DNA of 64,000 nucleotides from Verrucomicrobiales bacterium. Lineage in GTDB: Bacteria; Verrucomicrobiota; Verrucomicrobiia; Verrucomicrobiales; V1-33. Each line of letters begins with the position of its first letter. The stretch's first letter is position 1. Below are positions 6,420 to 64,000 of this stretch, in pieces. The translations under genes and the position numbers were made by a program. The DNA is taken from NCBI GenBank assembly GCA_031411295.1, contig JANOAV010000105.1:5013-69012 (forward strand), read 5' to 3'. Below the pieces are notes generated by a model that was not told the DNA's origin, did not search any database, and worked only from the letters and a program-made list of their open reading frames with translations.

Positions 6420-9400
6420 ATGAAAAATCCCCTTTTTCGTCTGGTGCCCAGCCTGTGTGGCTCGGCGTTGTTACTGGCTTCCTCTGCTGAAGCGAAGTTG
6501 CTTGGTTACTGGAATTTCGATGGTCCGTCTTCGACTTCGACTTCGGATCGTTTGAAGGATAAATCTGGCAATGGCTATCATGGTCGGGATCCGAATTATG
6601 GTGGGGGCACGGGGGTGAATCGCGTGTTCTTTAATGCGGTGGACGTGCCGCGGGCCCCGTATTTGGTGCCGCCCGGGAATACGAATTACTGCTTAGACCT
6701 GACGGGAAATAGCACGGCGGGCACGGAAAATAATCGCTATGTGGTGATTGAGCCTGATGCAGCTGGGGATGGCAGCGGGACGACCGCAGCTGCGGGGGCG
6801 GTTGACTCGACGGGGAATGCGTTTAACCTTGGAAATACCACAGGGACGTCCGTGGCGGCCACGGGGTTTCGGTTCACGGTGGCTTTCTGGTATAAGGGAA
6901 ATGCGGTGCAGACATATTCTAACTATGTTTCCAAGGGCGGGGAGGCTTACGGGAATGCCGGTAAGGCTTTTGAAGGTTGGGCGGTGCGTAAAAATAACAC
7001 AAATGTGCGCATGGATTGGGTGACGCGCGGCAGTTGGGCGAACACTGGGGACTTGGATGGTGGCGCGGATTATAATAATCGCAGCGGCGGCACGCTGGCG
7101 GCTCCTTCGCTCAATGGCGTGGTAGTGGCAGTGGGTAATGTGGCCAACAATACGATTGGAAATATCACGGACAATTTGGCGGCTGGCACTTGGCAGCATG
7201 CCTGTATGGTTTGGGATGGCACGCGGAAGCACATGTATATCAACGGCTTCCATAATAAATCGGAAACCATTGCTGGTGCCACTTACATCGGGACGACGGC
7301 TAAGTTAGTCTTCGGGGTGGATTATACTACGGCCAATGCAGTTAATGTGCTGAAGTTCTCCCGCACGCGGATGGATGAAATTTGTATTTATGATGAAGCG
7401 CTGACGCCTGGGCAGGTCGAAGATTTGGCACGGGGAGCCAGTCCGCTGACTCCGCTGCGCACACAATGGCGTCCATTCGATTTCGCCATGCCTACTGCGA
7501 ATCCTAACTTGGTGCCTTACAACAGCGCGTATCCACCAGCCTATGCTGCGGGAAATTTGTCTCCGACGGGAGCCGCCTATCCACTGAGCACCGGTGGTTT
7601 GCCCGCCAATGCCTTGGATGGGAATTTGGCGACGGCTTACATTAATTTGAAGGGCGTTTACAGCGGGTTGATGACGACTTTGCCTGCCACGAACATTGTG
7701 AAGAGTTTCACGATTACCACGGCGGCGGCTAATCCAGAGCGGGATCCTGCAACGTATGAACTGTGGGGCACGGCATCTGCGTTAACGAGCGCAGACAACA
7801 GTGGTGGCCGGGCGGAGGCGTGGACGTTGATTCAGTCCGGCGCGTTGGGTTTACCTGCGACCCGTGGGACCACTGTGACGATTCCGGTTACGAACTCGAC
7901 GACGTATTTGAATTACAAGATCGTGTTCCCGACCCTAACTGGGGCGACGGAAAAGACGATGCAGATTGCGGAAATCCAATATTTTACGAGCACGGACGGC
8001 ACGGGAGTAGGGTTGCTCTTGCCAGCCAGTGTGGCCCGGGCGATTGCTGAGCCAACGATTTCCAATGGCCAATCCTGGCATCAGGGGGCGGAGCAGGTGG
8101 CCAAGGTGATTGATGGCGTTACCACGACGAAATATTTAAATACTGCCGGAGCGGGCACTGGTTTCATTGTCACACCTGCGGCGGCTTCGGTGGTGCAAAG
8201 CTTCCGCGCCACGACCGCCAATGATACTCCGGGACGGGATCCCACGTTCTATGCCATCTACGGCACGAATGATACCATCAAGAGCCTGAATAACACAGAC
8301 GGTAAAGCGGAAAACTGGACGCTGATTCAACAAGGCCGCTTAACCATGCCGTTCGCTCGGACGACGTTGGGACCGGTGGTGACGCTGACAAATTCCACCA
8401 GTTACACCTCCTACAAAGTGGTCTTCCCGATGAACGGGGGCGAGGTGCTGTTCCAGTTAGCGGAATTCCAACTTTACCCCACCACAGATGCCACGGGCGC
8501 TGGGGTGCTGGCACCGGCAAATCCCATCCTGGGGGTGGCGGAAAATTACATGGGACCTTTGTCTGTGGCCAGCTTCTATGCAGGCTACACGGGCGGGCCG
8601 TTGATGCCGCAGGGCGGGCCAGGTTACATGGGGATCTTCGAACAGCGCGCCAACGGCAATCTGCGTCGGCCAGATGGATCTTCTTCGGGCAATGCTAATG
8701 TTTACACAGGGGATAGCCCTATCATGTATGCGCGGTGGGGGTCCTTGAATGCTCCGAGCTACACGCCGGGAATTATCAACTATCCCATTGTGCGTGGCAC
8801 CACCACGTCCATCAACTTTGGTGATGACAATTCGAGTATCGCCACGGGCTATGATGGTGCGCAAAATGAATTCCTAACGAGTTCGATTCCCGCCGCCCAG
8901 GATAATATGGTGCAAATGATTCAGGGCTGTTTCCGGGTGACGACTCCGGGGAAATATACGTTTACCTTGCGAGGTGATGACGGGGCTGATTTGGCCATTG
9001 CCGGGGCTACGTGGCTGTCGATGACTGCTGGTAATAACTTTGGTTCCATCGTGGGAGACACGCTGCAAAATCACATGACGACGGGGGACACCAATAATGT
9101 GGCGGTGGTGAATTTCCCGACGGCGGGGGACTATAATTTCCGCTACTCCTATAGTGAAGCGACGGGCGGCGCCTTCAATGAAGTGCTCTACGCTCAGGGG
9201 GAATTCGTGGCTTATGATGCGGTCGCCTTCAAACAACTCGGGGATCCTGCGGGCGGCCTGAGCCTGGTGGATCACACGCCAATGATGGACATCCGCAGCA
9301 CTGTGCTCTTGGTCACGGGCGGGGTTCCAGCCACGCAGACGCTAACATGGGATGCTGGCTATGCCACGAATGTGAAGATCAACGGTGGTGCTTTCGCCAA

Positions 9401-12400
9401 TGAAGATGTGACTGCTGTCACCCTCAATGGTTCTGGCTCACGGACCCTGCCCACGCCAGCCACGACCACGACCTACACCATCACTGGGATTCGTGGATCG
9501 GGAACGCCCGTGACCCGCTCCGTGACGGTCTATGTAAATTCCCCGCCGGTGATTCTAACGTTTGCCGCAGATGACGCCACGTTGCTCCCTGGGGCTCCGC
9601 TGACGCTGCGTTGGACCAGCCTCTTCGGCACCACTTTCACGCTGAGTAATGGCGTTACTAACACGAACGTCACCAGTAATACGACCACCGCCCCCGATGG
9701 CACTCAGAGTGGATTCATTACCATAGCTGCTCCTGCGGCGGATACCACCTACAGCCTCACGGCTACCAATACGTTCGCCCCTCCGACAGTTAGCACCACC
9801 CTTATCGATATCGGGACTGGTCCGACGCTGACATTTACAGGAGACAAGGCCACGATGCTGCAGGGTTCCTTCCTGACGCTAAACTGGACGGTCACGGACG
9901 GCGGCAATGCCACGATTACACCGCGTCTTAACAACTCATCGCTGTCCACCAGCGTCCCCAATACGGGCACCAGTGTGGAGCAACCCCAGTTGACCACTAC
10001 TTACACCCTGAGCGCATCCAACATTTACGGTAGTTCCTCAGCCACGACCACGATAACCATGCCAGAGCGCTTTGGAATTTCGCCAGCCGGCTGGACAGTG
10101 CAGGTGGATTACTGGAATCGCTTTGGATACACCGATCCTGTTTTTGGAATTCGCAATGCCCATACGGCAGCAGCCTATCAAAGTGACGAAATGTTTGCCA
10201 TCACAGACGCAGCGCTGGGTGACCGCGGACCGCTCGCCACGGTTAACACGAATACAACGACCCCTGCATTGAGCGGCCCGGCCGTGCCTCCGAACGCTCA
10301 ACCCGGCACTGGCGAGAAGTTGCTCATGCGCTATCGCGAAACGGGCGTGGCGGTTATCAACTATGATGATGCGGCCGCAGCCACCGGCAGCATTCCCGGC
10401 AGCGTTCGTCCACCTCCAGCGTTGACCGCAGGGGTTACCTATGACCAGTATGCCCTCAAGGCCACTGCCACCTTGGTGGTGAATGCGCCAGGCGACTACA
10501 CCATCGGGATCAACAACGATGACGGTGGGCGGTTGCGGATCGATTTGAATAACGATGGTGATTTCAGCGACGGAGGGGAAACGCTGGTGCAGGATGAAAC
10601 TTACCATGGCTTCCTTGGCACCCTCCCACTCACCTCCACGGTATCCCTCCAAGCCGGCGCCTATCCCATTGAATACATGTATTTCGAAGGTGCTGGTGGC
10701 TCCGGTGGGGAAGTCTTCTTCGTTGATCCGGATGACCAATGCCGCATCAAGCCCCTGCCCATCGTGAGTGCCAGTCCGACCGCTCCTGTAACCACGGACG
10801 TCGTTATTAGCGAATTCATGGCCGTGAATAACAATACGCTGGAGGACTTGGAGCACAACAATCCTGACTGGATCGAACTCTACAACGGAACCGCTGCCGC
10901 CATTAGCCTCAATGGATATTTCCTAACAGACAATGCTGCCATTCCTAATAAATGGGCCTTCCCCAACACCGCGAGCGTCCCAGCGGGTGGCTATCTGATC
11001 GTCTTTGCCTCCGGGAAAGCGACCCGCATTCCTCCGCCTCCCGCCACAGAGTTCCACACGAATTTCACCCTCGGTGGTGGCGTGGGTTATGTGGCTCTGA
11101 AGAAGAGCGATGGTGCCGGTGGGTATCTCAATGTTTCCTCTTTCAACTACCCCAACCAGCGCGGAGATGTTTCCTACGGTTGGTATGATGGAACCAATAT
11201 CGGTTATTCCAGCACGCCCACTCCGGGGAAATTGAACATGGGCGGAGCGGCCAGTCTGGTCACAGGCGACACTCATTTCAGTGTGGATCGAGGCATCAAA
11301 ACGGCGGCGTTTAGCTTGGAAATTACGGCCAGCGACACCACCCCAGGAACCATCATTCGCTACACCACGGATGGCTCCATCCCCACGGCCCTCAATGGCC
11401 AGAACTACACCGTCCCCATTCCCATCAGCGTCACTACCGCAGTGCGGGCCATCGCCATGCGAGCCGGTGCCATTCCCACCAACTCCGACACCCAGACCTA
11501 CATTTTCCTGGACGATGTGTTGACGCAGAACACCGTCCAAGCCCTCGCCAAAGGCTGGCCGAACTCTATCGTGGCCGGACAGACGTTCGACTTCGGCATG
11601 GATGCGGCCATCGTGGCCGGCAAGGAAACGGAAGTGAAAAATGCGCTCAAAGCCATCCCCACGGTCTCCGTAGTCACGGACATCACGAACCTCACCGACC
11701 CGAACTGCGGGATCTTTGTGGAGAGCCAGTTCCGGGGCCGGGCGTTCGAGCGCAACTGCTCCGTCGAATTGCTCAACGACAAGGGTGATCTCAATGGCAA
11801 TTTCCAAATCGAAGCAGGAATTCGTTCGCGCGGTGGATTCAGCCGCAGTGATGGCAATCCCAAGCACTCTTGGCACCTCTATTTCCGCAACGACCCCGGT
11901 TACGGCGGACGTTTGAAATATTCCCTCTACGGCACTGAAGGCACCAACCGTTTCGAGCAGATCGATCTCGCCACCGCCAATAATTACTCATGGTCATTCG
12001 CTCCGGAAAACGCCAACCTGCGGACCTTGGCTTACACCAACAGCTCCAATACCACCACCACGTTCCAATGGCGCTACAACACGTTCGTGCGGGACTTGGC
12101 CAGCCGGGATCTGCAAATTGACATGAGCGGCTATGGCACCCGCAACAAATACGTCCATCTCTACATCAACGGCATTTATTGGGGCCTGCATTATTTCCAA
12201 GAACGGGCGGAGGCTTCGTTTGGTGAAGAATATTTTGGAGGCGACAAGAATAACTATGACGTCATCAAATCCTCCGGCAGCACTAACGGTTACCAAACGG
12301 AAGCTACCGACGGAGATATGACCCGTGGTATTACCGGCACGGCCACCGTGGACGGCAACTACCAAAGCGCCTGGGCCAAATTTTACGGAGGCGCGCTCGA

Positions 12401-15188
12401 TATTCGTCAGCGCAACGGCAACCTCCTCACCCCGGCTGCCATCAACGATCGTAACGTCCGCCTCTATAAACTCATGGGCATGGACTACAATCCCAGCACG
12501 CAGACCGCCACGCCGAATCCCGCTTATCCTGTGCTGCTGGACGTGAACAACCTCGTCGATTACATCCTCATTACCTGCTACGCGGGTGCCTACGATGCTC
12601 CACTGTCCACGTTTGTAACCACCTCCGGTTCCAACAACTGGACCGCCATGCGGGATCGCGCGGGCAATCGTGGTTTCCGTTACTTCGTATGGGATTTCGA
12701 GCACGGCTTGGGCACGGACATGCTCAGTGGGGACTTCACTGCGGGCTACAGCTTGGACGTTGATCCTAGCGCCACTAGCAACGTGAAATTTGTCGGTTCC
12801 ACCATCGGCAACGCCACCCAGGCAAGCTACCGTTCCTACAATCGCCTGGGACCATGGGCCTTTGGTAACGGAGCCGTCACCCTCAATCCGCGGGCTCCTC
12901 TACCCACGTTCCAACAATATCGAGGAGACTTCAGTGGCACCAATCCGGAATATTTCTGGGATCCCTTCTACTATAACACGGGAAATGATCTAGCCCGCTC
13001 AAATCCTCAGTTCCTGCATGAAATGCTGGCCTTTTCCAGCGAATACCGTCGCCTGTTTGCCGACCGCGCTCAAGTCATGCTCCGCCAAGGCGGGCCATTG
13101 ACTACCCCCAAAGTGCTGGCCCGGATCGATGCCCGCAAAGTTCAGTTGGAAAATGCCGTCATTGCAGAATCCGCCCGCTGGGGCAATGCCAAAGGCGTCG
13201 CCCTCACTAACTACGACAAAAATGCCTGGCTCGCAGCCGTGCAGAATATGAAAGATTGGGTCATTCAAGGATCCAACCAACATGTGCTCAACAGCCTGCC
13301 CATCTATGAAGCTGGCGGAGTCATCCCACGGGCTGGCACAAACGTCCAAGGCCCTGGACGTGCTGAGTTGCTCATTTCCCAGCTCAAAGCCTATAAGGAC
13401 GGCGGTTCCAGTGGCGGGTTTGCCACTGTGACTACCAAGGCCCTAACATCCAACGTCGCCACTATCACCACGAATCCCGCCCATGGCTTCGTCGTCGGAC
13501 AACCGGTGCTCATCGTGCTGAACGGAGCGGATGCAGTGTTTGACGGCACTTGGACCATTGCCAGTGTCCCCACGCCAACAACGTTCACCTACGCCCGCAC
13601 CAATCCTACCAACGTCGCTTCTGCCGGGGCTGGTGGAACTGTAACTCCATCTGCGCAAAACTTTACCATCACGAATAAAGCACTCGCGACCAACGTGACA
13701 ACGCTGACCACTTCATCGCCTCATGGTTACCTCGTGAACCAACAAGTGACCGTGGCTATGACTCCGGCGGACGCAGTATTTGACGGCACTTACACGATTA
13801 CGGCCGTGCCAACCATCACCACCTTCAGTTACGCCAAAACCAACGCCAACGTTACTGCGGTGGCTGCCTTCGGCCTCGTGACGCCAACTACTCCTCCGGC
13901 AGCAAATATCACGGGTGCCGCAGCCTATGTCGTGCCTAACTTGTTCCCCAGCATCGATGCCCCAACCCTCAGCCTGAGTGGTGGCGTGGTTCCCACCAAC
14001 ACCACCGTGACCCTGACCAATCCGAACACAGGTTCCATCGCCAATCAGACGATTTACTACAGCACGATCGGAGTGGATCCACGGCCCATCGGCGGCGGAG
14101 CCCCTGCGGGCGGCACCTCCAGCATCGGAGTCAATGGCACCGTCAGCGGCAATGCAACCCTAACGGTAACCGGAGCCCTCGTGGCTCGCGTCTATGACAG
14201 CGTGGCCCAAGACTGGTCTGCACTCAGCAGAGGGGACTTTATTGTTGGGGTAGTGGCATCCGCTGCCAATTTCCTCATCACGGAAATGAACTACAACCCT
14301 GACAACACCACCCTGACGAGCACCGATGGTCAAAGTTTCGAGTTCGTCGAACTGCAGAACATCAGTGCCAGCCCGATCGATCTCACGGGGGTGAAATTCA
14401 CCACCGGCATCACCTACAACTTCCCGCTGGGACAAATCCTCCCCGCTGGAGAACGTCTGGTGATCGTGAAGGACCCTGTCGCTTTCGCCACCCGCTACCC
14501 AGACGCCAGCTACCCCGGCCTCTCCGCTAAAGTTGTCGGAACCTACAGCGGCTCGTTAGACAACGGTGGCGAGCAAATCGTCCTCAAAGCCCAGAACGGA
14601 AGTGACATCCGCAACTTCACTTACGGTGATGATGCCGACTGGCCACAGCTCCCAGACGGCCGCGGCCGCACGCTCGTCTTTACCTGTGCCGCCGGAGGCG
14701 AGGCTGTCTCCGCCGGGAATGATCCCGCCAACTGGTTCACCCACGCCCTCTTCCACGGCAACCCCGGCGGACCAGACTGCACCAGCTACAGCGCTTGGGC
14801 CGCCGCCAACTCAGCGTCCACACTTGGAGATGCCGATACCAGCGACCAAGACGGCGTTTCCGATCTGCTGGAATACTTCTTCGGCGGCAGCCTGACCAGC
14901 AGCAGCACCGATAAAATGCCCTTCGCCAGCGTCGCTAACCTCGTGGTGAATAACGTGGCCGCCGACTACCAAGTCATTACCTTCACCCGCGCCCCCGGCA
15001 CCGAAGACGCGTCCTTTGTGGTGCAAATCTCGGATGACCTCACTAATCCATCCTGGACCAACACCGCTGTCCTCACCATCCGCACGGAAAACCTCGACGG
15101 CTCCGTAACCTTCGTTTACCGTGCCCCGCTGGCCTACTCCGAGGACAACCGCAACTTCATGCGCGTGCAGGTGAACTACACGCCGTAA
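6420..15188 (+). CDS. Giant secreted multidomain protein: LamG-like, two discoidin-like repeats, PA14-like, Ig-like, lamin-tail domains, chitobiase/FN3-associated, CotH kinase-like core, conserved C-terminal domain
   Basis: Signal peptide (..SSAEA/K); LLGYWNFDG..WQHACMVWDG..MDEICIYDEAL (LamG); GDDGADL and NNDDGGRL (PA14); VVISEFMA..DWIELYN and LITEMNYN..EFVELQN (LTD); IRYTTDGSIP; YVHLYINGIYWGL..QER and FVWDFEH (CotH). Confidence 0.85.
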   Translation: MKNPLFRLVPSLCGSALLLASSAEAKLLGYWNFDGPSSTSTSDRLKDKSGNGYHGRDPNYGGGTGVNRVFFNAVDVPRAPYLVPPGNTNYCLDLTGNSTAGTENNRYVVIEPDAAGDGSGTTAAAGAVDSTGNAFNLGNTTGTSVAATGFRFTVAFWYKGNAVQTYSNYVSKGGEAYGNAGKAFEGWAVRKNNTNVRMDWVTRGSWANTGDLDGGADYNNRSGGTLAAPSLNGVVVAVGNVANNTIGNITDNLAAGTWQHACMVWDGTRKHMYINGFHNKSETIAGATYIGTTAKLVFGVDYTTANAVNVLKFSRTRMDEICIYDEALTPGQVEDLARGASPLTPLRTQWRPFDFAMPTANPNLVPYNSAYPPAYAAGNLSPTGAAYPLSTGGLPANALDGNLATAYINLKGVYSGLMTTLPATNIVKSFTITTAAANPERDPATYELWGTASALTSADNSGGRAEAWTLIQSGALGLPATRGTTVTIPVTNSTTYLNYKIVFPTLTGATEKTMQIAEIQYFTSTDGTGVGLLLPASVARAIAEPTISNGQSWHQGAEQVAKVIDGVTTTKYLNTAGAGTGFIVTPAAASVVQSFRATTANDTPGRDPTFYAIYGTNDTIKSLNNTDGKAENWTLIQQGRLTMPFARTTLGPVVTLTNSTSYTSYKVVFPMNGGEVLFQLAEFQLYPTTDATGAGVLAPANPILGVAENYMGPLSVASFYAGYTGGPLMPQGGPGYMGIFEQRANGNLRRPDGSSSGNANVYTGDSPIMYARWGSLNAPSYTPGIINYPIVRGTTTSINFGDDNSSIATGYDGAQNEFLTSSIPAAQDNMVQMIQGCFRVTTPGKYTFTLRGDDGADLAIAGATWLSMTAGNNFGSIVGDTLQNHMTTGDTNNVAVVNFPTAGDYNFRYSYSEATGGAFNEVLYAQGEFVAYDAVAFKQLGDPAGGLSLVDHTPMMDIRSTVLLVTGGVPATQTLTWDAGYATNVKINGGAFANEDVTAVTLNGSGSRTLPTPATTTTYTITGIRGSGTPVTRSVTVYVNSPPVILTFAADDATLLPGAPLTLRWTSLFGTTFTLSNGVTNTNVTSNTTTAPDGTQSGFITIAAPAADTTYSLTATNTFAPPTVSTTLIDIGTGPTLTFTGDKATMLQGSFLTLNWTVTDGGNATITPRLNNSSLSTSVPNTGTSVEQPQLTTTYTLSASNIYGSSSATTTITMPERFGISPAGWTVQVDYWNRFGYTDPVFGIRNAHTAAAYQSDEMFAITDAALGDRGPLATVNTNTTTPALSGPAVPPNAQPGTGEKLLMRYRETGVAVINYDDAAAATGSIPGSVRPPPALTAGVTYDQYALKATATLVVNAPGDYTIGINNDDGGRLRIDLNNDGDFSDGGETLVQDETYHGFLGTLPLTSTVSLQAGAYPIEYMYFEGAGGSGGEVFFVDPDDQCRIKPLPIVSASPTAPVTTDVVISEFMAVNNNTLEDLEHNNPDWIELYNGTAAAISLNGYFLTDNAAIPNKWAFPNTASVPAGGYLIVFASGKATRIPPPPATEFHTNFTLGGGVGYVALKKSDGAGGYLNVSSFNYPNQRGDVSYGWYDGTNIGYSSTPTPGKLNMGGAASLVTGDTHFSVDRGIKTAAFSLEITASDTTPGTIIRYTTDGSIPTALNGQNYTVPIPISVTTAVRAIAMRAGAIPTNSDTQTYIFLDDVLTQNTVQALAKGWPNSIVAGQTFDFGMDAAIVAGKETEVKNALKAIPTVSVVTDITNLTDPNCGIFVESQFRGRAFERNCSVELLNDKGDLNGNFQIEAGIRSRGGFSRSDGNPKHSWHLYFRNDPGYGGRLKYSLYGTEGTNRFEQIDLATANNYSWSFAPENANLRTLAYTNSSNTTTTFQWRYNTFVRDLASRDLQIDMSGYGTRNKYVHLYINGIYWGLHYFQERAEASFGEEYFGGDKNNYDVIKSSGSTNGYQTEATDGDMTRGITGTATVDGNYQSAWAKFYGGALDIRQRNGNLLTPAAINDRNVRLYKLMGMDYNPSTQTATPNPAYPVLLDVNNLVDYILITCYAGAYDAPLSTFVTTSGSNNWTAMRDRAGNRGFRYFVWDFEHGLGTDMLSGDFTAGYSLDVDPSATSNVKFVGSTIGNATQASYRSYNRLGPWAFGNGAVTLNPRAPLPTFQQYRGDFSGTNPEYFWDPFYYNTGNDLARSNPQFLHEMLAFSSEYRRLFADRAQVMLRQGGPLTTPKVLARIDARKVQLENAVIAESARWGNAKGVALTNYDKNAWLAAVQNMKDWVIQGSNQHVLNSLPIYEAGGVIPRAGTNVQGPGRAELLISQLKAYKDGGSSGGFATVTTKALTSNVATITTNPAHGFVVGQPVLIVLNGADAVFDGTWTIASVPTPTTFTYARTNPTNVASAGAGGTVTPSAQNFTITNKALATNVTTLTTSSPHGYLVNQQVTVAMTPADAVFDGTYTITAVPTITTFSYAKTNANVTAVAAFGLVTPTTPPAANITGAAAYVVPNLFPSIDAPTLSLSGGVVPTNTTVTLTNPNTGSIANQTIYYSTIGVDPRPIGGGAPAGGTSSIGVNGTVSGNATLTVTGALVARVYDSVAQDWSALSRGDFIVGVVASAANFLITEMNYNPDNTTLTSTDGQSFEFVELQNISASPIDLTGVKFTTGITYNFPLGQILPAGERLVIVKDPVAFATRYPDASYPGLSAKVVGTYSGSLDNGGEQIVLKAQNGSDIRNFTYGDDADWPQLPDGRGRTLVFTCAAGGEAVSAGNDPANWFTHALFHGNPGGPDCTSYSAWAAANSASTLGDADTSDQDGVSDLLEYFFGGSLTSSSTDKMPFASVANLVVNNVAADYQVITFTRAPGTEDASFVVQISDDLTNPSWTNTAVLTIRTENLDGSVTFVYRAPLAYSEDNRNFMRVQVNYTP

Positions 15189-36706: not shown

Positions 36707-37198
36707 ATGAAACTGACCACACTGACCACACTGACCACACTAATAACGCTAACCTGCTTACTGCAATTCTCAACCCTCGGGGGGTATGCTGAAGACAGCA
36801 AAGACCCTCTGGCGGACATCAAGTCTCAATTGAAGGACCCTGCCAAACCGTTCACTTTAATCGTCGAGTTCAGCATTAAGCCGGAGCATGTTAAGGAGTG
36901 GCGCAAGTTGGTGCAGGACTCTGTGAAGCAGACCAAGCAGGAGCCTGGTTGTGTAACTTACACCTGTCATCAGGACGCCAAGGATCCCAATAAGTTTGTC
37001 TTTGTGGAAGTCTGGCGCAGCATGGCGGCCATCGAATTCCATGTGCAGCAAGAGTATGTCAAGAGTCTGTTAGGTAAAGCCGGTGAACTAGGATCGGCCC
37101 CGCCCAATATTCGCGTCCTCACTCCGTGGGTTCCCGCTCCGCCGAAGCCCAAGGACGAGGGCGCACCCGCCAAGCCGACCGATCCAGCTGTCAAATAG
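36707..37198 (+). CDS. Secreted ABM-family (putative quinol monooxygenase) protein
   Basis: EPGCVTY..HQD..FVFVEVWRS..H motif of the ABM family; signal peptide; Pro-rich tail. Confidence 0.85.
   Translation: MKLTTLTTLTTLITLTCLLQFSTLGGYAEDSKDPLADIKSQLKDPAKPFTLIVEFSIKPEHVKEWRKLVQDSVKQTKQEPGCVTYTCHQDAKDPNKFVFVEVWRSMAAIEFHVQQEYVKSLLGKAGELGSAPPNIRVLTPWVPAPPKPKDEGAPAKPTDPAVK
36712..36738 (+). repeat. In-frame tandem repeat (ACTGACCAC)x3 in a signal peptide
   Basis: Three perfect 9-bp copies encoding LTT-LTT-LTT. Confidence 0.9.
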
Positions 37199-37242
37199 CA
37201 CTTCAACCCATCCGCTCCAAAACCGAACCTCCCTCCTGTCTT

Positions 37243-39516
37243 ATGAAAATCTCTCCGAATCTTTCGGGGGGGCTTCTGATGTGGCCCCTGGCCGCAGCAA
37301 TGCTCACGTGCCCCCTACTGCGGGCGAACCCAGAAACGGCCAATTTCACTTTTTCGAACACCACGCGATTAAGTGCGCAGGCGGGGTATTGGCGGCATTA
37401 TGCCCCGTCTGAGGGGTGGGCCGCACGCATGAACTGGACGGGAAATGTCTCCACCTGCACTCCCGGGACCGTGTCTGCAGACTATTTCGATGATTGCCTG
37501 CGGCGGATCAATTATTACCGGGCCCAGGCGGGGTTGCCTTCGGATGTGGCGCATAACTCAACCAAGAGCGCCAAATGTCAGTGGGCCACCCTCATCTTCA
37601 GTAAACAGGGGGATATTTCGCATACCCCGGCAGATGATTTCCCCAGTAACACCTGTCTGATGGCTGATAAAGCGGCCCACGGAGGGAATGGTTGGGGGGA
37701 TGCTGCGGCTTATGCCGGTAATCTAGCGTTGGGGAACACGGGGCCGGCAGCAATTGATGACTTGATTTGGGATAGTGGTGCGGAAAATACTGCGACGGGC
37801 CATCGACGCTGGTTTCTGGACCCCCGGGCCGCAGACATGGGATTCGGCGGAGTGCCTGCCAGTGGTTCTGGTGCTGGTGCTGTCAACGCCAGTGCTTGCG
37901 TTTGGATCATCGGGGATTGGAAGTCGCTGTCGGCAGCCACGACGAAGGTGGTGACTTGGCCGAACGCGGGATTCGTGCCCTACCAATTGGTGCCAAATTC
38001 AGCGAATTCAGCAGTTTTCGGCGGGCAGGTGCGCTGGTCCTGCACTTACACCAACGGAAATTTTTCCAGTGCCAGTGTGACCATGAATCGGACTTCGGGG
38101 ACGGGCTCCCCGGCCAGCGTGGGGCTGACCAAAGAACCTTACGAGGAAGGCTATGGTGACAACGCGATCGTCTGGAAATTGAACAGCGGTGCGTCCGTCG
38201 TAGCCCCGACACCGGTCCAGGATGTAACCTATCGCATTGTGATCTCAGGCATTACCCTAACGTCGGGTGCTCCGCCGCCGCAATTTGCAGCCACGGGTGG
38301 TGGCACCTACAGCTATACCTATGATGTTACGACCTTCGACGTCACGGCCCTGACTCCAGCCATGACGGTGAGCGGAGCAGCAGCTCCCGCAGCTGGATTG
38401 ACTAATACCTATACTCTCAATCCCTTGGCAGAGTCCAGTGGCCTCACGGTGCGAGCTGGCACTGCTGCCACCGCCGTTTGGACGGAAGGGGCAGAGGACG
38501 CTCCCACGCCTAAGGTGTTGGACGGCACCACTGGCGGATATTCCCTCCTCATGAGTTCGCTTCCCAGCAGTGGAAGCAAGACGTTCCATCTCACCTTTCC
38601 TTCCAGTCCGGTTGCGACGCAGTCCTTCACCATCGATCACCATATCATCCCCAGCGCCACGAGTCGCCTCCAGTTCAAGCATCGCTTTCGTTTTGTAAAA
38701 CTGGGTAGTTCGCTCAACGCGGAAATTTCCACGGACGATGGATCCAGTTGGACGAAGTTTTGGTCCCGGGCAGGAGATGCTAATAGCAGCAGTGGTAACA
38801 GCGGTTCCTTGGAAGCCAGCTATCAAACCGGGGACGTTGCCATCCCCGCGATTTATGCAGGGCGCACGTGTCGCTTCCGTTTCTCGTTGGATCATACCAC
38901 TGGACCGTTTTCTACCGGGACTACGGATACTTACGGGGCGTTGGTGGATAACGTTACCGTAACTGCAGCCCAGGAGTTCACCGTTAGTTCAGCAACCGTG
39001 CTTGCCAGCGCAGCCACGACCTATGCGTTCGTCCCCCCCAGTGTTGGGACCTACTATTTGCAAGCTAGCATGGAGCTGGGAGATACCCATTGGATGGATT
39101 GGGGCCCGCTGACCACCGTGACGGCGGTGGCCCCAGTTTCATTGCAAACCTGGCGGGCCACGAATCTGGCTTCAGCTACGAATACGGGCTCTGCCGCCGA
39201 TGCGGCGGATCCGGATGGCGACGGATTGGCCAACATTGTGGAATACGCTTTTGGCCTGAATCCCTCGTCCGCGCAATGGGATGCGGTGGCGTTACCGACT
39301 GTGAGCAAATCGGGAAATAGCATCGTTTACAGCTTCAAACCATCCGCTGGCGCCACGGGGGTGACTTACACCGTGCAGAAAACGACGAACTTGGCCACTG
39401 GGCCATGGACGACTGTTCCCAGCAGTGTCACGAAAGGCACCTACTCCGCCACCGTCCCGGTAGCCGCGAGTCCGATCTTCTTTCGGCTCAAGGTTGAAAA
39501 CGTTTCAGGGTTGTAG
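37243..39516 (+). CDS. Secreted CAP (SCP/PR-1-like) domain protein with conserved C-terminal domain
   Basis: Signal peptide; LRRINYYRAQAGL, ISHTP, GNLA, GHRRWFL..MGFG (CAP); C-terminal DPDGDGLANIVEYAFG..FFRLKV. Confidence 0.85.
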   Translation: MKISPNLSGGLLMWPLAAAMLTCPLLRANPETANFTFSNTTRLSAQAGYWRHYAPSEGWAARMNWTGNVSTCTPGTVSADYFDDCLRRINYYRAQAGLPSDVAHNSTKSAKCQWATLIFSKQGDISHTPADDFPSNTCLMADKAAHGGNGWGDAAAYAGNLALGNTGPAAIDDLIWDSGAENTATGHRRWFLDPRAADMGFGGVPASGSGAGAVNASACVWIIGDWKSLSAATTKVVTWPNAGFVPYQLVPNSANSAVFGGQVRWSCTYTNGNFSSASVTMNRTSGTGSPASVGLTKEPYEEGYGDNAIVWKLNSGASVVAPTPVQDVTYRIVISGITLTSGAPPPQFAATGGGTYSYTYDVTTFDVTALTPAMTVSGAAAPAAGLTNTYTLNPLAESSGLTVRAGTAATAVWTEGAEDAPTPKVLDGTTGGYSLLMSSLPSSGSKTFHLTFPSSPVATQSFTIDHHIIPSATSRLQFKHRFRFVKLGSSLNAEISTDDGSSWTKFWSRAGDANSSSGNSGSLEASYQTGDVAIPAIYAGRTCRFRFSLDHTTGPFSTGTTDTYGALVDNVTVTAAQEFTVSSATVLASAATTYAFVPPSVGTYYLQASMELGDTHWMDWGPLTTVTAVAPVSLQTWRATNLASATNTGSAADAADPDGDGLANIVEYAFGLNPSSAQWDAVALPTVSKSGNSIVYSFKPSAGATGVTYTVQKTTNLATGPWTTVPSSVTKGTYSATVPVAASPIFFRLKVENVSGL

Positions 39517-41538: not shown

Positions 41539-42561
41539 CTAGCTGCGCTTCCTTCGATACCCCCAGTAACCCAAGAGGACAATGCAGGCGGCAGCAACGG
41601 CAGTCAGGGACTGGAGCTTATGTTTACCCCACACCATTCTTGGCGGGTAGGCACTGGCAAGGTGGCTGCCTGGTGCAATAATACTGCGGATTAGTGCGGC
41701 TTGGGGCGCGATCCGGGTAGCCCCGCACCACATGGGGGAGGGGTGTTCCTGGAGCGCCCCGACCTCGCGAAACGTCTCGCCTAGCACACCCCGCCACATC
41801 TGGCGTCCGTCGTGAATGGCGGCCCAGAATGAGTCAGTGCCTGATGCGGTAAAGGAATATTGCGTTTCCTTCCCTCCCACCGAGGGGTCAACGTCGAAAT
41901 GAATTCCTGCCAAGCGCCAGTTGCCGGCTTGATCCTGCAGGAGCAGTCCGCCCCCGCTGTCACCGGATGCCAGCGTGCCTTCGTCCAGTCCCGCAGCTTG
42001 ATCCCAGGACCACACGAGGAGTGATCCGAGGTCTTCGCCTGCCGCAAAATATTCTTCGACTTGATTCGTGCCCCAACTGAGTTTCCCATCAGATTCGCCC
42101 CACCTCCATCCGGGCTTGGTTCCGTTAGGTAGCAAAATTTCCTGTCCACGGGCAGCTCCACGGCCCATCAGAAAGCAGGGTTGTTTCAACTCCGAGCCAC
42201 TACTCTCATCCCACAGTTCCATCCATTGGGGAAACTCCCCCTCCACGCGGAACAGCACCAAGTCTGTCCCCGGAATGCCGGCCGATTCCACCGCCGCATA
42301 GCTTTTGCCATTCAAATCAAAGAAGCTGCCAACATTCACTCCCAGGTGCAATGCGGTGATAAACCAGTGGGGGCTGATGCAGACCCCGGTGCCCCCTTGC
42401 CAATGACCATGACTGGCCCAAGCCTTCTGCAACGTGGGATCCGCCGGAGTGCCAAAATTCCTGCCCTCTTCTCGAAACACGATGATCGCCCGGGCATCGC
42501 CCAGGAGGGCGAGGGCGAGCAAGCCAAGGGCAAGGCGGCTTAAATGAAGTCGCAGTAGCAT
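41539..42561 (-). CDS. Secreted trypsin-like (S1) serine protease with C-terminal membrane anchor
   Basis: Signal peptide (ARA/II); catalytic triad motifs ITALH, TDLVL, GDSGGG; C-terminal TM helix followed by RRKRS; its ATG overlaps the PKS-NRPS stop (TAATG). Confidence 0.88.
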   Translation of the reverse strand: MLLRLHLSRLALGLLALALLGDARAIIVFREEGRNFGTPADPTLQKAWASHGHWQGGTGVCISPHWFITALHLGVNVGSFFDLNGKSYAAVESAGIPGTDLVLFRVEGEFPQWMELWDESSGSELKQPCFLMGRGAARGQEILLPNGTKPGWRWGESDGKLSWGTNQVEEYFAAGEDLGSLLVWSWDQAAGLDEGTLASGDSGGGLLLQDQAGNWRLAGIHFDVDPSVGGKETQYSFTASGTDSFWAAIHDGRQMWRGVLGETFREVGALQEHPSPMWCGATRIAPQAALIRSIIAPGSHLASAYPPRMVWGKHKLQSLTAVAAACIVLLGYWGYRRKRS

Positions 42562-45500
42562 TAGGTAAGCATCGGGCTGGGGGTGAGCTTGGCGAGGTGG
42601 CGACGCAGCTTGTCTGCCATCTGACTAACATTTGGCTCATCGAAAATCTCCAAATGATTACCCGGGACGCGATCTATGATGAGCCGATCCACCAAACTGG
42701 TCCAGCCATAATCCTCGCTGAGGTCAAACTTATCGCTGACTTCACTGCTGCGGAAGAGCAGCATCGTGGTGGCCAGCGGTGCCGCTCGATAGCCCTCGGC
42801 CGCCTGGATATTGGCTTCCCGAATCTGCACATAACGCAGACGTTCTTCCTCCGCCCTGACCCCTTGCTTGAGCAAACGCCGCGCAGAAGCAGTCTCGGCG
42901 TCGGTGCGGAACCGCTGAATCAAGCCGGAACTAAAACGGCCTCCGAGTTGCAATAACTTGCCCGCCACATTGTGGGATTGACTCGTGCGCCAATTCACGC
43001 TGATGCGCTCACCGAGCGTGTATTCGCGAGCCGGCACATTGGGGTTTTCCGTATCAAACATCACTAGTAAGGGAACCTCCTCACCAGCCGCCAACAGTTG
43101 CTGCGCCATTTCATAGGCCACTAAACCGCCATAACTGTAGCCGCCGAGCACGTAGGGGCCGCGGCGTTGGGCCAGTCTGATTAAGGCCACATACTCTGCC
43201 GCGACCGCCGGAATCGGGATCGATTCGATGGGCAGCGATTCATCGATCAAGGCGGGCGATTCCACAGTGTAGAGTTGCCGCTCCGTCCCGAAGCGCGAAA
43301 GCAACCCCTTGTAAAACAGCGCTCCGCCATCTCCGCCATGAATTCCGAAGAACGCCAGTTCATCCCCCGTTGGTTGAATACAGGTTAGGGGGGAGACCTT
43401 GCCGCGGGTGGCATTGGCCGTCGTTTCGATCACCGTGGCCAATTTCTCCAAGGTGGGGGCGCGGAACAAGGTGCCCAGCGGGAGGGCGACGCGGAAGTCA
43501 GTCCGGATACGAGTGAACAAACGCAGGCCGTGGAGCGAGGTGCCGCCGATTTCGAAGAAATTATCGTCGCTGCTTACGGCGGTGAGCCGAAGGATGTCCT
43601 GCCAAATTAACGCCAGTCGTTGCTCGAAATCCGTGCGCGGAGCCACATAGGCTCGTGCCCGGTCGGTGGGAGGCACAACCATGTCAGGTTGTGGGGCGGA
43701 GAGTGCTTGGCGGTTCAGTTTGCCGTTTTCGGTGAGCGGGAAACTCTCCATGCAGACGTAAGCAGAGGGGACCATGTAGTCCGGCAGTTTCGCTTGCAGG
43801 TGCTTGCGGAGGGCTTCGCTGGTGGGGAGATCTTTGTCATACACCACAAACGCGGCCAGATACGTTTCGCCATCCGCATTCTGCTGGGGCAGAACGGCGG
43901 CATCGCGCACGTCCGGATGGGTTAAGAGCACGGATTCGATTTCCCCTAGCTCAATGCGGTAGCCCCGCAGTTTGACCTGCTGATCCGCCCGCCCCAGATA
44001 CTCCAACTCGCGCCCTGGACGGAAACGTGCCAGATCTCCCGTGCGATACAATTTCGCTCCGGGCCGACCAGTCAAATGATCAGGCACGAAGCGCTCCGCC
44101 GTAAGTTCTGGGCGGTTTAGATAGCCTTGAGCCAGACCATCGCCACCAACATACATTTCCCCCACGCAACCAAATGGCACCGGTTCACCTGCTGTGTCCA
44201 AGAGATATATTTGCAGATCAGGAATGGGCACCCCGATCATGCTCCCGCCTTTCATATCTGCTGTAGTTAGTGGACGATAGGTCACATGCACGGTAGTTTC
44301 AGTAATGCCATACATGTTGACCAACTGCGGTGATTGATCTCCATGGCGGGCGAACCAGGGCTGCAAGGCCGCCATTTCCAGCGCCTCACCACCGAAGATG
44401 ACGTAGCGCAGACTAAGCGCCGGAGCCTGCGACAAGGTTGCTTCTGCCGCCATCAGTTGTTTGAAGGCACTCGGCGTTTGATTCAGCACGGTGACCTTTT
44501 CTGTCGCCAGCAATTCATAAAATTCATCAGGGGAGCGGGCCAAATTAAACGGCACGACGACCAAGCGACCGCCATACAGCAGCGCACCCCAGATTTCCCA
44601 GACGCTAAAGTCAAAGGCTGCGCTGTGGAAGAGGGTCCAAACGTCACGGGCGTTGAAGTTGAACCACGCCTCCGTGCTCTGCATTAAGCGCGTCACGTTC
44701 CGATGAGTGATCCGGCAGCCCTTCGGCTGGCCGGTCGATCCACTGGTGTAAATCACATACGCGATGTCATCCGGAATGATGCTGGTTAGAGGATTTGTGG
44801 TCGGGAAATCTGTTAGCGCGTCATCGATGAACAACGTGCGTCCAGCGTGTTCGGGCAGTTGTTTCAGCAGACTGCGCTGCGCCACTAGCACCGGGGCGGC
44901 AGCGTCTTCCAGCAGGAAGGCCAGACGCGCGGCAGGGTAGCTCAGATCCATGGGGACATAGGCGGCTCCCGCTTTCAAGATCCCCAGAATGGCCACCACT
45001 AAAGGATTGGCGCGCTCCAGGCACAGCCCCACCAGCATGCCGGGGCGCACCCCGGCCTCAATCAAGGCGTGGGCCAGTTGGTTGGCGCGGGCGTTCACTT
45101 CACCATAGGTCAGGTTTTGCGTGCCGCAGGTCAGCGCCAAGGCCTGTGGATGCTGCTGGGCTTGTTGTTCGAACCAAGCATGCAGACAGAGATCTCCTCC
45201 AGCCTTGCGGCCATGAGCGTTGAAGCCGTGGATCAGTTCGCTGCGTTGCCCGGTGGTGAGCATGGGAAGCCGGGATATTTCCATTTCTGGATGGGCGCAG
45301 AGTGACTGTAACAAACGTTGATAGTGCAGCATCCATTGCTGGATTGTCTCCTCGCGGAATAGTTCGGAGCGCGCAGCACATAACAGTCGCAGATCCTCTG
45401 CCCCCTGATAAGCATAGAGGGTCAGCGGGAAGTTGGACCGCAACTTGGGATTCAATATCGTCGTGAAGGCCAGTCCGCCTGCTGCGATCGTGTCAGCCCC

Positions 45501-51236: not shown

Positions 51237-51243
51237 GGGGAAG

Positions 51244-59595: not shown

Positions 59596-59900
59596 ATCAG
59601 GAAATGGCATCAACCCCTTCGAGCAAGTTTCGCACAAACACAGAACTCCGTTCACACGACAAGGCGGCGTGCAGATAGCTCCTTAGCATATGAGTTGGCA
59701 TCTCAAGAAGGTCCATGGTGGTCGGTTGGCTAGAAAGGGGCATTTCTAGAAATTGTGGTATTTATCCTAAATCATATTTACCCCACAAGCAACAAATATC
59801 AACCAATCAAAAATTTCTGCACCCGCTTTCTTTTAAAAACGCGCCGCATTCGCAGATTTGAGAGCCTGTCTGAGGGGGATGTGTTTCCAGCCGCAGGGCA

Positions 59901-60764: not shown

Positions 60765-61112
60765 TCACAAAGTCGACACCCTTAGCCGCACGAAAATCAT
60801 CTTCCCTCCGCCCTCTGCAGCCAGCCGAACTTTCACGGTGAGGGTGCCACTCCCCGTCTCCGCAACCGGCTGCACGGCCCCGCCCGCGCCAGCCACCGCC
60901 GTCACCCCGCCCCCAGTGCTAGTGGCCCCGGTCGTCCACGATTGCATATCCTTGGAATATTCCACATCATAAACCACATCCGTCCGCGCACTGAGGCGAG
61001 TGGAAGTAAACTCCACCCCACCGCCAGCACCAGCCGCTGCCACGGTAGGGAGATACTTACTAGCCGCCGCATTACCCAGTGTCCCGAAGGCATGTTCAAG
61101 CAGGTTCCCCAC
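60765..61112 (-). pseudogene. Orphan duplicate of the C-terminal domain of the large protein at 61970..>64000 (5'-truncated remnant)
   Basis: GNLLE[H/Y]AFGTL..TRLSARTDVVYDVEYS.DMQSWTTG..ETGSGT..RLAAE.GGK.IFVRLRVS is shared. No signal peptide or ATG; the homology begins mid-motif. Confidence 0.75.
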
Positions 61113-61207
61113 GCCGTTTTGACCGTGACCTACAGCACCTCTCCCCCCGCAACACCAGCCAGGAAAGTAAAGTTGCGGTAGCGCAGCAGCATGGTATGCT
61201 TTTGATC

Positions 61208-61396
61208 ATGAATGAACAAACAATCGAGCTAGAAATAACAGAGGTGAAGAAACGTCTCGCCAAACTGGAATCTGCTGCTGGAACAGCTCCGCCAAAATGG
61301 CGTGGAGCAGTAGGCCGTATTCAGCCAAGTGAACTCACCAAGGAAGCTGCCAGACTAGGCGCAGAATGGCGGAAGCAGGAAAATGCTAGGAGATAA
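61208..61396 (+). CDS. Putative antitoxin partner of the PIN toxin
   Basis: 62-aa ORF (coiled-coil N-terminus, W..AVG..EAARLGAEWR) 3 bp upstream of the PIN gene. Confidence 0.75.
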   Translation: MNEQTIELEITEVKKRLAKLESAAGTAPPKWRGAVGRIQPSELTKEAARLGAEWRKQENARR

Positions 61397-61399
61397 AAA

Positions 61400-61969: not shown

Positions 61970-64000
61970 TCACAACGCAGACACCCTTAGCCGCACAAAG
62001 ATCACCTTCCCACCGACCTCAGCCGCCAACCGAATTTTCACGCTCACTGTTCCGCTGCCCGTTTCGGTGACTGCTTGCACGGCCCCGCCCAGGCTTGTGG
62101 TTACTCCACCGCTACTGCTGCTGGCACCAGTCGTCCATGATTGCATATCTGGGGAATATTCCACATCGTAAACCACATCCGTCCGCGCACTCAGCCGTGT
62201 AAAGGTGAACTCCACGCCACCTGCACTAGCTGGTGCCACGGTGGGCCGATATTTACTAGCCGCAGAATTCGCCAGCGTCCCGAAGGCATATTCCAGCAGG
62301 TTCCCCACGCCATCGTTATCCGCATCTGCTTCGGCTAGCGCATTGTTTCCGGATAGCCCGGCCCCTTGCGCGTAGAGCTGGAAACCAGTTCCCACGGTCA
62401 GTGCCGCCGTCTGTGCAGAATCCGCATAGCCATTGTCATTTCGTGACCGCACCACGTAACGCACAGAGGCTCCGATGGGAGCTGAGCCATCGGCAAATCC
62501 GACAGCAAAGCTTCGCCCGACCCAGGCCAGTGCCCCGCCATTGGTGCTGCGGAAGATATCGTAATAGTCCGCGTTGGCACCTGCGGCCCAGGTTAGGTTT
62601 ACTCCATAGCTGTCTTTACTGGGAGCAGCCACCAAGGGAGCGCCCACCACCCGCACGTCGAATCCCGTGGAGAAATGCAACTGCACGGGCACTGTTCCCA
62701 GCCTTGATCCATTCGGGTTCAGGGCAAAGACATCCACCACGTAACTTTGATTGTATTCCAGCCCGGTGTAAGCCACCTGAGCTGTCGCCCCAGCAGCGGG
62801 AGTCACCGACTGGGAGGCAACAATGGAACCATCTCCCCGACGCAGATACACTTGGTAGTCTTGATACACCGCCGTCACGCCCGCAGGCAGCACCGCATTC
62901 CACTGCACTGTATTGCTATTCCCCGCCGTGATCTGGTAGTTGGCATTCACAAACGTGATCCCCAGCGGCAGCAACGGAGCCAGCGTGGCACTGGCCGCTG
63001 CTCCTTGCAGCGAGACCACATCCCCCAGCACCGTGGCCAGCGTGTAGCTGAAGGTATCGCCATAGGCCACCGCCGCGTCCCGATAACTCGTCGCCCCGGC
63101 AGCAACACGCGTCAGTTCCTCCACCGCATCCGTCCGCGTGTCCTTCCGATACACCACCATGCCCGTCGCTCCCGGCACTGCTGCCCAACTGAGGTCCACC
63201 CATGGGGAAACGGTCGTTTGCCCGCCCGCTGTGGCCACCGGAGTCGGCCCGCCCGCCACTGTGCCCAGCGTCAGCGACCGCACGCTGGAGACAAATTCCT
63301 GCCCATCCCACTGCGCCACCACCTTCCATTCCACCGACGTATGAATGCCCACGTTCACCGCCAGAGATTTCTCCCCCGTGCCGCCCAGCACTACATAGCT
63401 ACCCGCCCCATCCCACCGACCCAGCAGCGTGTAGGCCACCGCCAGCGAGACTGGCTGATTGCTCGCCCAGGTCAGCACCTGCCATGGAGCAGAGGCCGCC
63501 ACAAACCCCGTCGTCCCCGATGCCGGGGCAAACCCCGCGTTATCGAAGGCAAAGCGATTCCCCGTGATCGTGATCGGCTGTGGCAGATCCCGCGTCACTC
63601 CGCCACTCTCCAGCCGCACCTCCTGCGTGCCTGAGAGCAGCGTCGTATCCAGAAGAAACGTCGCCCCCGTCACGCTCCCAGCCGTGTTCCAAGCCGTCGT
63701 CCCCTGCGGACGCGTCAAGATATTGTAAACCCGGAACGCATCCACGGGCGTGGCCGTCCATGACAACGAAGCCGCCGTCGCCACAGGCACGCTGTAACTT
63801 GCCGCCGTGAAGCTCGCCAACGCAAACGTGCTGGACCGCGTCAGCACCTTCTCCGCCACCCCACGATTCCCGCTCTGGTCATAGGCTTCCACCCGCAGGA
63901 TCAGACTCGGCACCGTGTCCGCAAACGTATAGCTCAGGCTCGTCGGCAAGGTGCCACTCGTGTAGTTGCCTATCACCGTCGTCACGCCCCCGACAATCTT
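61970..64000 (-). CDS. 3' part of a large secreted/surface protein with FN3/Ig-like repeats and conserved C-terminal domain (partial, starts beyond the window)
   Basis: Open frame to the window edge; FN3-like VDLSWAAVPGATGMVVYR..SYRD and VNLTWAA..YYDIFRS; C-terminal DADNDGVGNLLEYAFG..IFVRLRV. Confidence 0.85.
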   Translation of the reverse strand, partial: KIVGGVTTVIGNYTSGTLPTSLSYTFADTVPSLILRVEAYDQSGNRGVAEKVLTRSSTFALASFTAASYSVPVATAASLSWTATPVDAFRVYNILTRPQGTTAWNTAGSVTGATFLLDTTLLSGTQEVRLESGGVTRDLPQPITITGNRFAFDNAGFAPASGTTGFVAASAPWQVLTWASNQPVSLAVAYTLLGRWDGAGSYVVLGGTGEKSLAVNVGIHTSVEWKVVAQWDGQEFVSSVRSLTLGTVAGGPTPVATAGGQTTVSPWVDLSWAAVPGATGMVVYRKDTRTDAVEELTRVAAGATSYRDAAVAYGDTFSYTLATVLGDVVSLQGAAASATLAPLLPLGITFVNANYQITAGNSNTVQWNAVLPAGVTAVYQDYQVYLRRGDGSIVASQSVTPAAGATAQVAYTGLEYNQSYVVDVFALNPNGSRLGTVPVQLHFSTGFDVRVVGAPLVAAPSKDSYGVNLTWAAGANADYYDIFRSTNGGALAWVGRSFAVGFADGSAPIGASVRYVVRSRNDNGYADSAQTAALTVGTGFQLYAQGAGLSGNNALAEADADNDGVGNLLEYAFGTLANSAASKYRPTVAPASAGGVEFTFTRLSARTDVVYDVEYSPDMQSWTTGASSSSGGVTTSLGGAVQAVTETGSGTVSVKIRLAAEVGGKVIFVRLRVSAL

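Follow-up and report, generated by a model that had tools for sequence, protein, structure and literature searches.

In the dockerin (PF00404)-cohesin pairing of cellulosomes, a calcium-loop tail on many enzymes docks to a shared cell-anchored partner, and in chaperone-usher pili an Ig-like domain without its last strand is completed by the N-terminal extension of the next subunit. For type B tails in type IX secretion (T9SS), PorP-like partners are reported in the available text of PMC9143113. Very large exported enzymes serve the Verrucomicrobia in breaking down mucin, fucoidan and the polymers of soil, and the route by which these enzymes reach the cell surface is the question addressed here. 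The present analysis concerns a C-terminal domain (the tag) that is shared by unrelated exported proteins encoded in a stretch of 64,000 nucleotides (the window) from a Verrucomicrobiales bacterium (assembly GCA_031411295.1, contig JANOAV010000105.1, positions 5,013 to 69,012, forward strand). It is on balance probable that this domain serves, as modelled, as a many-to-one donor-strand docking tag on a partner resembling the TIGR02597 family, which would bring the passenger protein to the cell surface and hold it there. The terminal bias of the tag, the exchange of tails, the co-occurrence with the partner, the natural fusions, the gene order and the surface location of one carrier are observed.

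A profile of the tag was iterated from three copies in the window (listed below) over 66,926 six-frame reading frames of the source genome (G000), with E < 1e-5 as the cut-off, and it recovered 222 tag domains, each about 125 amino acids (aa) long, in 220 proteins. The frames bearing the tag make up close to 9% of this genome, and they include 86 of its 159 frames of at least 1500 aa, many of the remainder ending in a PEP-CTERM tail. The interpretation of this DNA made from its letters alone (the sequence-only reading) had proposed the domain as a candidate sorting or secretion signal, for which a strictly C-terminal position and signal peptides on the carriers were expected. The first of these holds for most copies, but not strictly: 201 of the 217 full-length tags (viz. 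those reaching the last strand) end within 10 aa of the stop codon, where random placement would give about 15, and among the others 5 end 11-25 aa from the protein end and 11 are internal (more than 25 aa from it), several of them directly after the signal peptide. The second agrees with what is seen, as a crude rule recognises a signal peptide on 145 of 177 carriers; among other long frames 589 of 1370 pass this rule, and among internal pseudo-starts 14 of 177. No C-terminal membrane helix was found on any of 257 carriers and no Tat motif on any of 234; lipoprotein signals were seen on 0/145 carriers by one rule and in 5/234 versus 100/4688 by another, a depletion thus being unsettled. In four DUF1800 proteins and one RHS protein the tag is N-terminal and stands right after the signal peptide, and a free C-terminus therefore seems unneeded.

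With a profile of its beta-sandwich alone, 230 terminal copies are found in the source genome, 169 with an Asp-rich loop ahead of the sandwich and 61 without it, and the tag hence has two parts, of which the Asp loop is optional. No Pfam or NCBIfam family covers the tag on the window proteins or in 41 aligned copies. PF18962 and the NCBIfam T9SS sorting models match none of these copies and none of the window proteins, and the same library does mark PF18962 on two other proteins (P0223 and P0226). The dockerin family PF00404 has no match among the 41 copies, and the tag has a single loop where it has one. The bacterial TSP3 repeat (TSP3_bac, PF18884), a 22-aa Asp-rich module, matches one of the 41 copies weakly and overlaps the Asp loop in some internal copies, covering the optional part only.

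The tag is exchanged for other tails both within the source genome and between phyla. No protein carries both a PEP-CTERM tail and the tag, and in the source genome there are paralogs of tagged proteins in which PEP-CTERM takes the place of the tag (in one case with 53% identity over 1225 aa, in another with 41% over 2038 aa). Of 78 homologs of the CAP protein of the window, 59 end in the tag, 2 in a T9SS tail (P0223 and P0226; one T9SS-tailed CAP cluster is named Chitinophagales), 1 in a dockerin (P0210) and the remainder in other tails. It is therefore supported that the tag behaves as a portable targeting tag, being terminal, borne by Sec-exported proteins without a membrane anchor, and replaceable by PEP-CTERM, T9SS and dockerin tails. 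The full tag profile matches 183 of 301 genomes of the phylum; when 80 of the non-matching genomes were searched with the sandwich alignment, 8 gave one or two matches, mostly weak, and 5/5 positive controls gave 6-149. In a sequence library clustered at 50%, 26,536 clusters match at E 1e-10, a number inflated by Asp-repeat proteins; among the best 150 of these, 104 have the sandwich, 92 of them in terminal position, and 58 of the 104 top representatives carry tandem tags. When the tag alignment was run against named genomes, no usable pattern emerged.

One carrier of the tag has a published location. The Akkermansia muciniphila sulfatase P0349 (WP_180975819.1) matches the PDB entry 9S8X over residues 23-1285 and bears the tag at residues 1287-1413 (E 4e-24), and since 9S8X is Amuc0953 according to the available text of PMC13524802, Amuc0953 carries the tag. 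In the same text, Amuc0953 has an SPI signal, is surface-exposed and cell-bound, accounts for the whole-cell activity and is absent from the medium, whereas its tail-less paralog Amuc0451, which matches it over residues 504-1195 only, is periplasmic. That 2026 paper states that some unknown mechanism must carry Amuc0953 out, and its authors liken the unresolved last domain of the enzyme to a T9SS tail and propose a comparable system, with no machinery named in the available text (PMC13524802; the preprint, bioRxiv 10.1101/2025.09.11.675649, agrees). A T9SS-like reading of one Akkermansia tail is thus already in print, and what appears to be new here, going by the literature searched, is the link of the tag to a TIGR02597-like partner.

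This partner was recognised from gene order. In genome G087, each of the 5 tag genes that were fetched has a small PEP-CTERM gene no more than two genes away, and in one case a 343-aa gene stands between them; both this 343-aa protein and the C-terminal 300 aa found after several internal tags are members of the TIGR02597 family or remotely related to it. Phylogenetic profiling, which the sequence-only reading had proposed as a way to find a co-occurring translocon or peptidase, shows that the TIGR02597-like proteins co-occur with the tag. The curated TIGR02597 model is matched in 17 of 40 tag-rich and 1 of 40 tag-free genomes. Many members, and also a shorter type of the protein, score below this model, and two broader profiles were needed for them, which detect the partner in 34/40 rich and 3/40 free genomes; these profiles were built partly from the same 80 genomes. 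In 80 held-out genomes that were not used in building, the partner is present in 38 of 42 rich and 1 of 38 free genomes, where free genomes were defined by the full tag profile only and many of them are fragmented. Within genus g2 the partner is found in 9/9 tag-bearing and 0/13 tag-free genomes.

Natural fusions and neighbouring genes are informative in the same regard. At all 9 loci where the tag and partner are fused, the F-x-R strand of the tag precedes the partner domain (4 by profile, 5 by eye), such that the last strand of the tag is followed by a short turn and then by the strand equivalent to the mature N-terminus of stand-alone partners, for which the consensus is T-x-P-V-G or S-x-N-x-V-G. 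A small PEP-CTERM gene lies directly 3' of the partner gene at 20/20 loci (16/19 in an overlapping earlier set), at both named Akkermansiaceae loci and behind all three stand-alone partners of the source genome, and in genome G290 the sole PEP-CTERM match is the gene downstream of the partner. A tag gene adjoins the partner gene at 3 of 20 loci only, as is expected of a shared hub, and there is often one partner per genome. A pairing of one PEP-CTERM gene with each cargo was also considered and rejected, as it is seen at 5/5 loci in G087 but at 10/257 in the source genome, and none is on the same strand among 5 tag genes in genome G072. Elsewhere, six TIGR02597-like genes form a tandem array (G234:C2:945652-951867). 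In the literature searched, which leaves subscription journals mostly outside its coverage, no description was found of the tag family, of TIGR02597 or of a link between them, and the tag domain is not described in the available text of PMC4960237 and PMC9957290.

The predicted fold of the tag suggests how the two proteins might fit together. An AlphaFold model of the tag (41 sequences; pLDDT 93, pTM 0.84) has the order helix, loop, helix and then six strands, and the chain ends at the strand of the F-x-R-x-x-V motif; the sandwich also folds alone (pLDDT 87). The Asp loop has the 12-residue spacing of the EF-hand type and is likely to bind calcium, judging from this spacing. The sandwich aligns best with domains of the fibronectin type III (FN3) kind (Z 8.6, rmsd 2.6, 71 residues). 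FN3 domains have seven strands, and the six strands of the model thus indicate that the tag lacks the last one, so that in its predicted form it has the hallmark of donor-strand systems (an Ig-like fold without the last strand). In the PDB, a sequence search gave no match below E 0.7 for tag or partner, and Foldseek gave none at E 0.001 for either model. The structural matches of the tag are Ig/FN3-like, and among the matches listed no chain is titled as a T9SS tail, which leaves such a likeness possible.

For the complex of tag and partner, the donor-strand interface was stated before folding, and the pair folded consisted of the partner and the tag of the coupled C95 operon, which are products of adjacent genes. 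The complex scored 0.86 and the best of three controls 0.00, on a scale on which the mark used is reached by 116 of 157 solved complexes and by 2 of 215 mismatched pairs; the runs share at least 93% of contacts, and the pLDDT of the partner is at least 68. In the model, residues 23-28 of the partner form an antiparallel pairing with the F-x-R strand of the tag (residues 128-133), and the conserved D-L of the tag (residues 86-87) touches the body of the partner, and therefore the two most conserved motifs of the tag form the predicted interface. The predicted completion of the tag by the N-terminal strand of the partner is supported both by the model and by the fusions. The model backs tag-partner binding and does not show it.

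The copies of the tag from which this analysis started, and the genes bearing them, are as follows.
6420..15188, + strand: exported protein of 2922 aa with LamG, PA14, CotH and LTD domains, bearing the tag (open reading frame, domain library, signal-peptide rule)
14787..15188, + strand: tag copy 1, Asp loop and six-strand sandwich, with S-D-D-L..W at 15030-15056 and the last strand at 15156-15173 (profile E 8e-19)
37126..39516, + strand: exported CAP-domain protein, its start likely near 37246
39145..39516, + strand: tag copy 2, the modelled copy, with the 12-residue EF-hand-type loop at 39208-39243 and the last strand at 39478-39495 (profile E 2e-23)
61970..64000, - strand: 3' part of the gene of a 1949-aa exported protein with FN3, continuing past the window edge
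61970..62380, - strand: tag copy 3, with the Asp loop at 62291-62326 and the last strand at 61982-61999 (profile E 6e-23)
60765..61112, - strand: shortened duplicate of copy 3 that lacks both the Asp loop and a signal peptide and is likely the remnant of a gene (78% identical in nucleotides over 352 bases)

The sequence-only reading had recognised four related C-terminal stretches here, and all four are present at these positions, each running to a stop codon; 6/6 pairwise alignments beat 300 shuffles each (scores 56-424, shuffle maxima 45-64). However, it had counted four copies, and as the orphan duplicates the 3' end of the neighbouring FN3 gene, the independent window copies number three. 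The motifs which it listed (an Asp-rich loop, S/T-x-D/N-L-x(2-4)-W and a terminal F-x-R-L/V-x-V) lie at 15030-15173, 39208-39495 and 61982-62326, the passengers are unrelated, as it had said, and to the Sec signal peptides on the complete genes can be added the signal-peptide-like start of the FN3 gene. The FN3 gene and its truncated duplicate are separated by a toxin-antitoxin-like pair, consisting of an antitoxin-like small frame and a 140-aa frame (61079-61822, + strand), the latter of which we take to be PIN-like from its motif and not from a library match. The window also encodes, at 42561-59655 (- strand), a hybrid PKS-NRPS with aminotransferase and thioesterase, plus an FkbH-domain NRPS.

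If the docking reading is correct, the following sequence of steps can be envisaged. The passenger would cross the inner membrane via Sec, as its signal peptide suggests, and the tag would then fold with its edge left open at the last strand, the optional EF-hand-type loop likely binding calcium in the modelled form. The mature N-terminus of the partner is predicted to pair with this open edge and the S-x-D-L-x-x-W loop to pack on the partner body, a cis version of which is provided by the natural fusions. Going by gene order alone, the small PEP-CTERM protein whose gene follows directly downstream would likely retain or escort the partner, and the outer membrane would likely be crossed via secretin machinery of the type II/type IV pilus class, which nearly all of the phylum possesses; this last step is the weakest. 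One to few partners would in this manner serve tens to hundreds of tagged proteins. The broader proposal of a phylum-wide display system, in which enzymes and adhesins in their hundreds would attach by incomplete FN3 tags to a TIGR02597 adaptor, through donor-strand complementation, and would be anchored via the adaptor's cognate PEP-CTERM protein, is put forward tentatively, as plausible but short of probable.

Several points weigh against docking as a means of surface display. Amuc0953 differs from Amuc0451 also in a mucin-binding domain at the N-terminus and in an Ig domain, and the tag is not isolated as the cause of the different locations; furthermore, in the available text of PMC13524802, Amuc0121 is likewise partly at the surface. 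A single cognate pair from adjacent genes was folded, and the missing strand is deduced from secondary structure and alignments and not from coordinates. No partner was found in 10 of 82 rich genomes and one is present in 4 of 78 free genomes, and in family f7 the low-copy genomes with a convincing tag have a partner in 5/8 cases, with none found in 3/8. The co-occurrence counts are not independent, because the free genomes fall in a few families and are kin. The link to PEP-CTERM is weaker for the short type of partner, in that 5 of 11 additional stand-alone loci, most of them of this type, have the PEP-CTERM gene, and also for the fusions, of which 4 of 9 have it. Lastly, about 250 carriers face 3 stand-alone partners in the source genome, which strains a one-to-one permanent anchor, and this ratio and the ten rich genomes lacking a partner remain unexplained.

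Due to this ratio, and as there is often one partner per genome, the TIGR02597-like protein might instead be a recycled periplasmic shuttle or chaperone, which would hand its cargo to a secretin after transient reading of the tag as an export signal, surface retention being a separate matter. The modelled interface would be identical, and all 40 rich genomes tested have a secretin of either type. However, in the fusions the cargo itself ends in the partner, and there the two travel together; the gene of the partner is moreover coupled to one for a PEP-CTERM protein. We regard this alternative as rather unlikely. The gene order of cargo, partner and PEP-CTERM, together with the donor-strand geometry of the model, also recalls donor-strand pili, and it could be supposed that PEP-CTERM proteins form the shaft of a fibre, with the partner as tip adaptor and the tagged proteins as tip enzymes or adhesins. 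Such a fibre would agree with the tandem tags and with a possible chain extender, a 1789-aa frame (G000:C45:2614-7980) that has part of a partner domain at its N-terminus and the tag at its C-terminus, but the downstream PEP-CTERM proteins are highly divergent (BLAST links 11 of 276 pairs) and the present data give no sign of polymerisation, and due to this a fibre appears quite improbable. The docking, shuttle and fibre readings all share the tag-partner step.

With regard to the export machinery, SprA and GldM were not found in the source genome (94% complete) or in 5/5 further genomes, although no control genome passed the cut-off either. The analogy to the T9SS CTD drawn by the sequence-only reading as an export or anchoring tag has therefore fared unevenly: a portable targeting tag with one surface-bound carrier (from the available text of PMC13524802) is upheld, and a T9SS match is not, as no T9SS domain match and no T9SS parts (with silent controls) were found. 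The tag thus appears not to be a T9SS signal, and what the evidence favours is docking on a TIGR02597-like partner and not a cleaved translocon signal. The source genome has four secretins, and when its GspD-like protein was used as a query, 32/40 tag-rich and 12/40 tag-free genomes gave a match, as would be seen if the tag were a label that directly addresses proteins to a type II secretion system of the GspD type, without a dedicated partner. However, with the family model Secretin_N the numbers are 38/40 and 33/40, and the contrast vanishes; this model finds nothing in 6/6 genomes of genus g2 tested, two of which (G087 and G162) carry 6-8 tags. The Amuc_1098-type secretins (39/40 versus 34/40) are not discriminating either. 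As such a label would also leave the partner profile and fusions unaccounted for, it is considered very improbable, and a secretin route is possible but not specific. The least credible reading is that the tag plays no part in targeting and is an ordinary module, either a spacer stabilised by calcium or a binder of glycans. Its FN3-like fold, weak structural matches to CBM56 and CBM21, Asp loop overlapping TSP3_bac in some copies and internal and tandem copies would suit such a module, but the terminal bias, zero sharing with PEP-CTERM tails, cross-phylum tail swaps and partner profile would all be unexpected.

Some further observations concern the genes around the tag and the alternative tails. 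The neighbours of tag genes in the source genome cluster into kinases, ECF sigma factors, sulfatases and DUF1501, with no translocon among them; Ser/Thr kinase (33/754) and ECF sigma factor (12/754) genes are the commonest by raw count. The tagged DUF1800 proteins (L047, L051, L053 and L054) have four DUF1501-like neighbours on the same strand, which hints at a surface action of these proteins, and L049 (G000:C41:32085-39146), of the SpvB/TcdB-midN/RHS type with the tag after its signal peptide, has its variable C-terminus left free. An unusual secretin at L063:1289-10743 (G000:C156) is divergent beside a PilT-like ATPase and a number of genes that look pseudopilin-like and match nothing in Pfam. 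Another recurrent tail, ending ALVEVYE (P0215, P0217 and L113:4406-6412), stands in place of the tag on CAP homologs and is found in a tag-free f7 genome; it may be a second lineage-specific signal. At L121:1797-3478 and G000:C174:47212-52307, neighbouring genes share a passenger domain, one with a PEP-CTERM tail and the other with the tag. In the tag-free genome G147 of genus g2 there are 67 matches to PEP-CTERM, of which many lie on very large frames, versus 24 in the tag-bearing G087.

More than 200 proteins of one genome end in the tag, and most of these have signal peptides for export, which points to a so far undescribed system of protein display that is also present in the gut bacterium Akkermansia. 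As the results name one partner gene, in most cases present in a single copy, and an exact predicted interface, the question can now be put to the test in Akkermansia, where transposon mutants exist. From the tag profile the surface proteome of members not yet cultured can be predicted, and display engineering could make use of a portable pair of tag and adaptor. If a phylum-wide display system does exist, it would be the missing route for the surface mucin sulfatase of Akkermansia and would give the small PEP-CTERM proteins a defined job.

In comparison with known systems, the closest published case is the C-terminal domain of Amuc0953 itself, which is a member of the tag family with a published surface location; the available text of PMC13524802 treats this one protein and its Akkermansia homologs, and no phylum-wide family, partner or tail deletion appears in it. 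The TIGR02597 family, which the candidate partner matches or approaches, has no assigned function. The PEP-CTERM/exosortase tail (PF07589) is an alternative to the tag on paralogs of the source genome and a gene neighbour of the partner, but the tag is a folded domain of 75-125 aa without a membrane helix or basic tail. The principle of strand completion is shared with chaperone-usher pili, whereas the tag is of FN3 type, no usher or chaperone family was identified, hundreds of cargoes correspond to one partner and there is a link to PEP-CTERM. The T9SS CTD (type A, PF18962) of the Bacteroidota is likewise a small Ig-like tail of unrelated Sec-exported passengers that are displayed at the surface, and it replaces the tag on CAP homologs; however, the tag also occurs N-terminally and in tandem, and its candidate partner is a soluble TIGR02597-like protein and not a beta-barrel. 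With the dockerin the tag shares a tail with a (here likely) calcium-binding loop, carried by many enzymes, but its loop is single and optional, its binding is predicted to occur by the edge of a beta-sandwich and not by helices, and its setting is a Gram-negative envelope. The tag therefore works like a T9SS tail or a dockerin, while being a member of neither family.

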